Shown: positions 27,180 through 27,208 of the stretch, in pieces
Layout: each line of letters starts with the position of its first letter
Position numbering within the stretch: position 1 is the first letter of the stretch
Origin: an uncultured Anaerolineales bacterium
GTDB lineage: Bacteria > Chloroflexota > Anaerolineae > B4-G1
Assembly (NCBI GenBank): GCA_964530325.1
Contig: CAZHAX010000001.1
Span: 186,128-250,127 of the forward strand
Reading direction: 5' to 3'
Length of the DNA stretch: 64,000 nucleotides
Made by a program: the position numbers and the translations under genes
The notes under the pieces: model-generated
Databases searched by the model: none
Told to the model about the DNA's origin: nothing
What the model saw: only the letters and a program-made list of their open reading frames with translations

Positions 27180-27208
27180 GTAACGGCTGCCTGTAACTTG
27201 GTCGTAAC
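27180..27208 (+). promoter_or_regulatory. Three tandem GTAAC direct repeats (13- and 11-bp spacing) upstream of the giant TadE-like gene
   Basis: ccgGTAACggctgcctGTAACttggtcGTAACgc. The same triple motif, co-oriented with the downstream gene, occurs at 59238-59265. Confidence 0.4.

Follow-up and report, generated by a model that had tools for sequence, protein, structure and literature searches.

Two GTAAC arrays upstream of a tad operon and an ATPase/GDPD operon

We analyzed a 64,000-nucleotide stretch of DNA, referred to here as the window (~65% G+C; positions 186,128 to 250,127 of contig CAZHAX010000001.1, GenBank assembly GCA_964530325.1), from an uncultured Anaerolineales bacterium, focusing on two arrays of three GTAAC pentamers (boxes) that precede two of its operons. 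Anaerolineae, to which the protein homologs assign the window, are abundant, mostly uncultured filamentous Chloroflexota, and we know of almost no experimental work on the control of their transcription. One array (site 1) lies in the 353 bp that separate the flp pilin gene (26828-26983) from a giant TadE-like gene (27337-31065), which is the first gene of a tad operon and whose homologs have conserved synteny. The other (site 2) is flanked on one side by a zincin-like gene (59308-59709) and on the other by a P-loop ATPase gene (59002-57653), which is followed by a gene for a glycerophosphodiester phosphodiesterase (GDPD). The arrays and the genes directly downstream of them are as follows.

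27180-84, 27193-97 and 27204-08, + strand: site 1, three GTAAC boxes in direct reading, spacing 13 + 11 bp, upstream of the TadE operon
27337..31065, + strand: giant TadE-like pseudopilin/adhesin gene, 1242 amino acids, ATG start; TadE N terminus, Big_1 and CARDB by Pfam
59264-60, 59253-49 and 59242-38, - strand: site 2, three GTAAC boxes, spacing exactly 11 + 11 bp, upstream of the ATPase/GDPD operon
57653..59002, - strand: P-loop ATPase gene, 449 amino acids, GTG start at 59002, first gene after site 2
56802..57773, - strand: GDPD gene, identified by Pfam

Site 1 reads ccgGTAACggctgcctGTAACttggtcGTAACgc on the + strand and site 2 reads cgaGTAACcaggctGTAACgggcctGTAACcc on the - strand. Each triple points in the same direction as its downstream gene (TadE and ATPase, respectively), and a degenerate GTAGC (27168-72) is found distal to the boxes of site 1.

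Clustering of GTAAC boxes in the window

The GTAAC pentamer itself is not overrepresented in the window, where we counted 27 copies on both strands versus 30.9 in shuffled sequences. Six of these 27 copies sit in the two co-oriented triples. From an analytic estimate, ~2e-5 triples with a spacing of 10 to 13 bp are expected per window versus the two observed, and none of 1,500 windows simulated with a first-order Markov model contained a triple. Similarly, four GTAAC pairs were seen in the window versus 0.036 expected, and a mismatch-tolerant search of the window retrieved no sites beyond the two triples. With three exact GTAAC copies each, both sites contain two or more direct repeats of a half-site of 5 to 7 bp, and the repeats are spaced by one helical turn (10 to 11 bp), the exception being the distal box of site 1, which stands 13 bp from its neighbor and is not kept in L134, the nearest relative. 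The 11-bp spacing that the original prediction had assigned to both triples is therefore correct for site 2 (11 + 11), whereas site 1 follows it only in its proximal pair (13 + 11). Of 42 boxes, 36 have a pyrimidine directly before GTAAC (position -1). Taken together, the clustering statistics and the conservation of the boxes described below bear out the proposal of a shared, nonrandom cis-element co-oriented with both genes, and we conclude that the GTAAC array is a real, selected cis-regulatory element.

Promoter anatomy at the two sites

Both arrays are followed by hexamers that resemble -10 elements of σ70-type promoters.

27227..27235, + strand: extended -10 TGcTATAAT (P1), hexamer 21 nt past the proximal box of site 1; conserved in L134/L135
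27258..27266, + strand: second TGcTATAAT (P2), 31 bp past P1; retained in L134/L135
59210..59215, - strand: -10 hexamer TACTAT, 22 nt past the proximal box of site 2; TAGTAT, TACTAT, TACCAT or TACAAT in relatives

At 17-nt spacing, no -35 match is present at either site, with ACGCTT occupying this position at site 1 and CCCTAC at site 2, and a consensus promoter scan found no canonical -35/-10 pair at either of them. At eight promoters the proximal box stands 21 to 22 nt before a -10-like hexamer, recognized by hexamer likeness only, and all eight are without a -35 match. If transcription starts ~7 nt after the -10, the box centers would be located near positions -58 (-60 at site 1), -47 and -36. 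Given that the proximal box would take the -35 position and that a -35 element is absent, we propose that these promoters are activator dependent. P1 and P2 are possibly tandem, or two alternative, TadE promoters. The duplicated TGcTATAAT at 27227-27266 is flanked by GGTATGTGC repeats.

Conservation at orthologous promoters

We compared the two sites with the corresponding promoters of related Anaerolineae. In six contigs from close relatives (L001 to L006), whose ATPase is ~90% identical to that of the window, the spacer averages 70% identity and the 27-bp triple is essentially invariant, forming the sole invariant block of the zincin-ATPase spacer; the -10 is retained as well. L008 and L009 (ATPase ~76% identical), whose gene neighborhood past GDPD is partly different, carry TTAAC-N6-GTAAC-N6-GTAAC followed after 22 nt by TACCAT, and L139 carries three GTAAC boxes followed after 21 nt by TACAAT upstream of its ATPase gene. 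In an alignment of five sequences from three Anaerolineae lineages (ATPases ~73 to 90% identical), the invariant columns are confined almost wholly to the three boxes and a few positions of the -10. The ATPase promoter of L010 and L011 has no boxes and shows TTGTCG-N17-TATAAT in their place, and no boxes were found upstream of the ATPase gene of L012.

A comparable picture emerges at the tad locus. L134 and L135 (TadE 54% identical), which come from the same sample series as the close relatives, retain the proximal two boxes along with the 21-nt distance and the pair of TGcTATAAT elements, and the out-of-phase distal box of site 1 is missing from them. Three further lineages with identical tad synteny (L136, L137/L138 and L142) have no boxes before TadE, where they carry TTGCGG or TTGCAA, a spacer of 17 to 18 nt and TATAAT. 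Box arrays and -35 hexamers thus alternate at both genes, as would be expected if the boxes provide the contact to polymerase via a bound activator. These comparisons show selection on the boxes at both promoters.

GTAAC arrays in other loci and phyla

In ~190 kb of related Anaerolineae loci, every exact GTAAC-N6-GTAAC pair is intergenic and oriented with the next gene. Two of these pairs, upstream of a hybrid kinase gene in L012 (N22, TACGAT) and a kinase gene in L141 (N22, TAAGAT), belong to further promoters with the geometry of a proximal GTAAC, N21-22 and TAnnAT, which is also seen before an LCP gene in L077 (N21, TACAAT) and an amt gene in L128; none of these promoters is orthologous to site 1 or site 2.

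When public genomes were scanned for the exact triple with 11/11 spacing, at least 120 matches came up, mostly from unrelated phyla; Chloroflexota account for 13 of the 120 exact triples among the matches listed, and only these 13 were analyzed. All 13 are free of a covering open reading frame (ORF) on the same strand. Since TAA falls in every frame when three GTAAC copies are spaced by 11 bp, this absence from same-strand ORFs is true by construction, and the intergenic location is uninformative as a control. The genes that follow these matches include those for an LCP protein (L077), an L,D-transpeptidase (L089), a metallo-beta-lactamase-fold protein (L047) and a cyclophilin-acyltransferase (L130), as well as a PAS-kinase phosphorelay operon (L067). 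Five of the six matches listed for Dehalococcoidia precede ammonium-transporter (amt) genes.

L065 7132, L084 2882, L131 1405, L088 4903 and L128 3838: Dehalococcoidia amt sites, three GTAAC boxes each

In L065, L084 and L088 a fourth box, degenerate but in phase, lies 10 nt from the -10, and L128 has five in-phase boxes. This suggests that the amt arrays of Dehalococcoidia are a GlnR-like nitrogen operator, in a class whose nitrogen regulation is uncharacterized. No OmpR-type regulator adjoining these amt sites was found with tblastn.

Some GTAAC arrays are a different element. L072 and L110 (290-460) hold long arrays with 8 to 10 copies of GTAAC/GTCAC at 11 to 12 bp; in L072 (4765-4870), ten boxes lie between convergent genes, beside other direct repeats. 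The L110 ORF was read by eye, without a family search, and we take it to encode a phage replication-organizer-like protein. The arrays of L072 and L110 may be origin iterons rather than promoters. In Clostridium tyrobutyricum (L048 4558-4584), three copies of TGTAAC-N5 lie between amt-glnB and a polysaccharide deacetylase gene, a site that looks like the WalR type.

Genetic neighborhood of the two sites

The ATPase contains a Walker A (GYPGNGKT) and a Walker B motif (LLIDDF). Its homologs are named AAA or ATP-binding proteins in the source records, and no Pfam or NCBIfam family matched it. The calls made for the TadE, GDPD and two OmpR-type genes were all borne out by Pfam, the last as two Trans_reg_C regulators. 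The ATPase is 70 to 90% identical across Anaerolineae and constantly paired with the zincin and GDPD genes, and a search of metagenome contigs with the ATPase alone returned one distant locus (L007, 42% identity). According to the gene calls in L001/L002, GDPD is translationally coupled to the ATPase gene in relatives, which probably puts the real GDPD start near 57656. The window gave no hits in scans with Rfam and for tRNAs, and the long leader of the ATPase gene matches no known riboswitch.

On the same strand, GDPD is followed by genes for a membrane-anchored LuxR/Kelch protein (55152-56480), a REC-GAF-HisKA kinase (53504-55117) and an OmpR-type regulator (52609-53457), and further along by REC-Roadblock, REC-PatA_N, small proteins and an MglA-like GTPase (194 amino acids). 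This gene order belongs to a cluster conserved in Anaerolineae (window 47042-59002, - strand, and L139/L140/L141), which runs zincin, ATPase, GDPD, (Metallophos), (PHO4-PhoU_div), LuxR/Kelch, REC-GAF kinase, OmpR regulator, REC-Roadblock, REC-PatA_N, small proteins, Roadblock, MglA-like GTPase, Roadblock and REC-GAF. The cluster looks like a polarity or motility-type signaling module near the tad pilus locus.

At site 1, the tad operon continues after the giant TadE-like gene with a second TadE, Tad/VWA, RcpC, a REC-ParA-like protein, CpaF and two TadB/C genes, and flp is preceded by a NarL-type regulator (24892-25596) and a HisKA_3 kinase. A hairpin stands between flp and the TadE promoter.

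27022..27053, + strand: hairpin 3' of flp, 14-bp stem, fold of -32.7 kcal/mol (z = -4.5), no U-tract

The sequence of this strong hairpin is conserved in L134 to L138 and L142, thus across distant Anaerolineae tad loci, and it could be a terminator or attenuator that fixes the flp:tadE ratio. Elsewhere in the window (12679-23767) we found housekeeping genes, namely, mevalonate-pathway genes (HMG-CoA reductase, a thiolase-like and an OB-fold protein) and a pantothenate/CoA block with panB, panE, panC, coaX and coaBC.

Proposed mechanism and candidate regulators

We propose that the GTAAC arrays are predicted boxes for a response regulator of the OmpR/PhoB family, of the activator type and in place of a -35 element, an explanation that we hold, as a whole, with moderate confidence. 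Winged-helix protomers would bind head to tail, 11 bp apart on the same DNA face, and the bound regulator would recruit RNA polymerase. One signal would then govern the TadE operon of the Tad pilus and the ATPase/GDPD operon in this clade. The start sites, activation as opposed to repression, the family of the protein and the regulator's identity are inferred. The small regulon linking the pilus adhesin with the AAA/GDPD operon, as suggested in the original prediction, has support for this clade only.

Two OmpR-type regulators encoded in the window are candidates.

52609..53457, - strand: canonical OmpR-type response regulator, 282 amino acids, identified by Pfam, receiver residues DD/D/T/K intact
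45746..46447, + strand: orphan OmpR-type regulator, identified by Pfam, receiver degenerate (EG for DD, no conserved T or K)

The regulator at 52609-53457 belongs to a family that is 60 to 79% identical across Anaerolineae and is always found in one cluster, together with LuxR/Kelch, the REC-GAF kinase, REC, REC-PatA_N and further genes and, continuing, Roadblock, the MglA-like GTPase, Roadblock and REC-GAF. L139 has a compact run of ATPase, GDPD, Metallophos, LuxR/Kelch, kinase and regulator genes after the triple, which is the sole recognizable promoter there, an arrangement that fits positive autoregulation. Because in this relative it belongs to the operon behind the boxes, the protein at 52609-53457 is plausibly the leading candidate binder. 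It would act with the REC-GAF histidine kinase and may be transcribed from site 2, and thus be autoregulated. The orphan protein at 45746-46447 is the second candidate: its receiver scores under the Pfam cutoff, and its gene adjoins an inositol monophosphatase gene and has a σ70-type promoter, no GTAAC boxes and no partner kinase. The earlier nomination of the 52609-53457 protein as the regulator is plausible from its conserved cluster and the L139 operon. Given that the boxes also occur in lineages, and in Dehalococcoidia, without the adjoining cluster, the binder may be encoded elsewhere, or paralogs may share the half-site. Searches against the Protein Data Bank (PDB) and NCBIfam gave no assignment of either OmpR-type protein as GlnR, WalR, MtrA, PhoB or RpaB.

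Alternative explanations

Several observations weigh against the proposal of activator-type OmpR-family boxes or against parts of it. Regarding the regulator, a σ70-like promoter (TTGCCC-N16-TG-TATAAT; 56622-56595, - strand) precedes the LuxR/Kelch-kinase-regulator genes of the window, so that autoregulation via site 2 is not required; no boxes stand at the head of the regulator cluster in L140 and L141, and L008 has boxes without the cluster adjoining. Neither OmpR-type protein reaches any NCBIfam equivalog cutoff, and their PDB matches are generic. Regarding the promoters, the transcription starts were placed from -10-like hexamers alone, and in site 1 the distal box lies 2 bp off phase and is absent from L134. 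Among the public matches listed, a strict TANNNT at +21/22 was present at 2 of 13 Chloroflexota triples versus 5 of 107 controls, proportions that are not distinguishable, and GTAAC arrays also occur outside promoters (within an ORF in L110 and between convergent genes in L072). Finally, the extended -10 of site 1 is perfect and present twice; it could function without an activator, in which case the boxes there might modulate or repress.

This last point leads to the possibility that the boxes are operators for repression or fine modulation, at which a bound protein occludes polymerase from intrinsically active promoters. The TGcTATAAT of site 1 is of a type known to work without a -35 element, and OmpR-family proteins such as MtrA repress through GlnR-type boxes, as cited in PMC10704036. 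Site 2 and its orthologs, however, have weak -10s (TACTAT, TAGTAT, TACCAT) without a TG extension and without a -35, a combination typical of activator dependence, and the lineages that lost the boxes gained a -35, as expected if the boxes supply the contact to polymerase; we consider repression quite improbable. A different question is who binds. The boxes could be read by a protein of another family or by one encoded outside the window, the possibilities being the LuxR/Kelch protein (55152-56480), the NarL-type regulator (24892-25596) or a global regulator resembling WalR, MtrA or GlnR. The LuxR/Kelch gene is a constant neighbor of the ATPase and GDPD genes, the NarL-type two-component pair keeps its synteny with flp-TadE across all lineages, and boxes are present in genomes and classes without an adjoining cluster of the 52609 type. 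On the other hand, the box sequence fits published consensus sites of the OmpR family. GerE-type helix-turn-helix proteins usually bind inverted repeats rather than 11-bp phased direct pentamers. The NarL-type pair is an unlikely binder, since L136, L137 and L142 retain it although their TadE promoters are box free; likewise, L012 and L140 retain the LuxR/Kelch gene, yet the boxes are missing at the ATPase promoter of L012 and at the cluster head of L140. Overall, a binder of this other kind appears unlikely to us, though it is to be taken seriously.

Another possibility is that the GTAAC boxes serve as -35 elements for a neighboring extracytoplasmic function (ECF) σ factor, which is encoded by an ECF σ/zf-HC2 anti-σ fusion gene (59859-61526; 555 amino acids).

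59813-59840, + strand: ECF promoter-like GTAAC-N17-CGTTAC, just before the ribosome-binding site of 59859-61526; conserved in L002/L003

Both the GTAAC and the CGTTAC of this element are conserved in L002/L003, and it looks like a genuine ECF promoter; moreover, a CGTGC lies 16 nt past the proximal box of site 1. At site 2 and its orthologs, in contrast, no CGT motif follows any box after 16 to 17 nt, and the triple persists in L001, in whose neighborhood the ECF gene is missing, so that the pentamer shared with the boxes is probably coincidental. An ECF -35 would also leave three conserved phased copies unexplained, and both sites have σ70-type -10 hexamers at a fixed 21 to 22 nt. We therefore regard the boxes as very improbable ECF -35 elements; the promoter postulated at 59813 in the original prediction is conserved, but it is an element of a different kind. 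That the repeats are due to chance, or are nonregulatory (iterons, a partition site or the end of a mobile element), is the least probable explanation. The long GTAAC arrays with 11-bp period outside promoters in other Chloroflexota (L072, L110) lend it some weight, as does the fact that TAA in all three frames bars such triples from same-strand coding sequence. Against it stand the ~2e-5 triples expected per window where two are seen, the conservation of the boxes at orthologous chromosomal promoters whose flanks have diverged, and a chromosomal housekeeping context with conserved synteny and with no replication, partition or transposition genes nearby in the window. Conservation and statistics have effectively refuted this reading already.

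Significance

With the GTAAC arrays read as predicted OmpR/PhoB-family activator boxes, the two sites offer a testable promoter architecture (three phased GTAAC boxes, 21 to 22 nt and a -10 hexamer) and a short list of candidate regulators. Such boxes predict the coregulation of a Tad-pilus tip/adhesin operon with the conserved ATPase/GDPD signaling cluster, and the motif is usable for regulon prediction in metagenome-assembled genomes. Direct-repeat boxes of the OmpR family are textbook knowledge, so that the advance is one of annotation and not of concept. In the literature we found no description of a GTAAC motif in Chloroflexota; the element type is well known, and its occurrence and fixed geometry in this phylum appear to be undescribed.

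A bolder reading, which we consider decidedly unlikely, is that a single ancient global OmpR-family regulator with an 11-bp GTAAC operator acts throughout Chloroflexota, as the counterpart of WalR, MtrA or GlnR in other phyla of Terrabacteria. If true, it would control ammonium uptake in Dehalococcoidia and envelope and surface functions (Tad pili, LCP, L,D-transpeptidase) in Anaerolineae. It would also govern a superoperon with ATPase/GDPD, LuxR-Kelch, the REC-GAF kinase, the OmpR regulator, PatA-type receivers, Roadblock proteins and the MglA-like GTPase, and would tie pilus expression to a polarity-type GTPase module in filamentous Chloroflexota.

Comparison with known operators

The pho box of Escherichia coli consists of CTGTCAT plus 4 nt in 11-bp repeats that replace the -35 element and stand ~10 nt from the -10. 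The arrays described here share the direct repeats of 7 + 4 bp (CTGTAAC versus CTGTCAT), the probable replacement of the -35 and the co-orientation with the gene, and a typical Pho-regulon function, GDPD, is encoded after site 2, with Metallophos and PHO4/PhoU_div in the cluster of relatives. They differ in the distance of the proximal box from the -10 (21 to 22 nt versus ~10 nt). Furthermore, the PHO4 promoters of relatives are without boxes and share ACTACTATGCTATAATC, Pho targets do not usually include the Tad pilus, and PhoB equivalog scores are far under the cutoff. A sequence similar to the pho box is quoted in PMC4168254. The Pho-box identity, prompted by the GDPD, Metallophos and PHO4 neighbors, was weakened by the box-free PHO4 promoters. 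In L008 (~12340), L140 (~3640) and L141 (~4840), the PHO4/PhoU_div operons have a common promoter core, ACTA(CTA)TGCTATAATC, and no GTAAC boxes.

The cyanobacterial RpaB site HLR1 has the consensus (G/T)TTACA(T/A)(T/A), in two direct repeats with a 10-bp period and varying orientation to the gene. GTTACA is the reverse complement of TGTAAC, and among NCBIfam models the 52609-53457 regulator scores highest against RpaB (139.5 bits, far under the equivalog cutoff of 330). The period of 10 bp, the two repeats and the variable orientation of HLR1 contrast with the three co-oriented 11-bp boxes of site 2.

In Actinobacteria, GlnR, an OmpR-family regulator, binds boxes of the form GTnAC-n6-GTnAC or t/gTAAC-n6-Gc/aAAC, in an a-b-a-b arrangement with 2 to 4 boxes (PMC10704036). 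The sites of the window likewise have 5-nt boxes 6 nt apart beside a promoter and follow GTnAC-n6-GTnAC, and the orphan OmpR-type protein with a degenerate receiver (45746-46447) has a GlnR-like architecture. A classic target of GlnR-type regulators, amt, is preceded in Dehalococcoidia by the triple plus a degenerate fourth box. The targets in the window are different, TadE and ATPase/GDPD, and no nitrogen genes were found there. All boxes are of the GTAAC type, without an alternating GAAAC b-site, the phylum is another one, and GlnR structures in the PDB match either window regulator weakly.

A further resemblance in sequence is to the WalR/VicR (YycF) box of Firmicutes, TGTWAH-N5-TGTWAH (PMC4168254), a direct repeat of a hexamer with an 11-bp period. 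Three boxes instead of two and a host from Chloroflexota instead of Firmicutes set our sites apart, the OmpR-type proteins of the window score 105.6 and 98 bits versus a YycF equivalog cutoff of 340, and no WalK-like kinase was found among the proteins of the window. Boxes 2 and 3 of site 2 (TGTAAC-gggcc-TGTAAC) nevertheless match the consensus exactly, and those of site 1 (TGTAAC-N5-CGTAAC) match it with one mismatch. The downstream genes here and in other Anaerolineae (Tad pilus, LCP, L,D-transpeptidase) concern the cell surface and envelope, as do WalR targets, and the Clostridium match of the public scan has its three TGTAAC before a WalR-type target, the polysaccharide deacetylase gene. 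The grammar of our sites, (Y)GTAAC-N6-GTAAC, equals the box grammars of both WalR and GlnR, and the view that phased repeats of this kind are typical of OmpR/PhoB regulators is borne out by the match to GlnR (PMC10704036) and WalR/VicR (PMC4168254) boxes.

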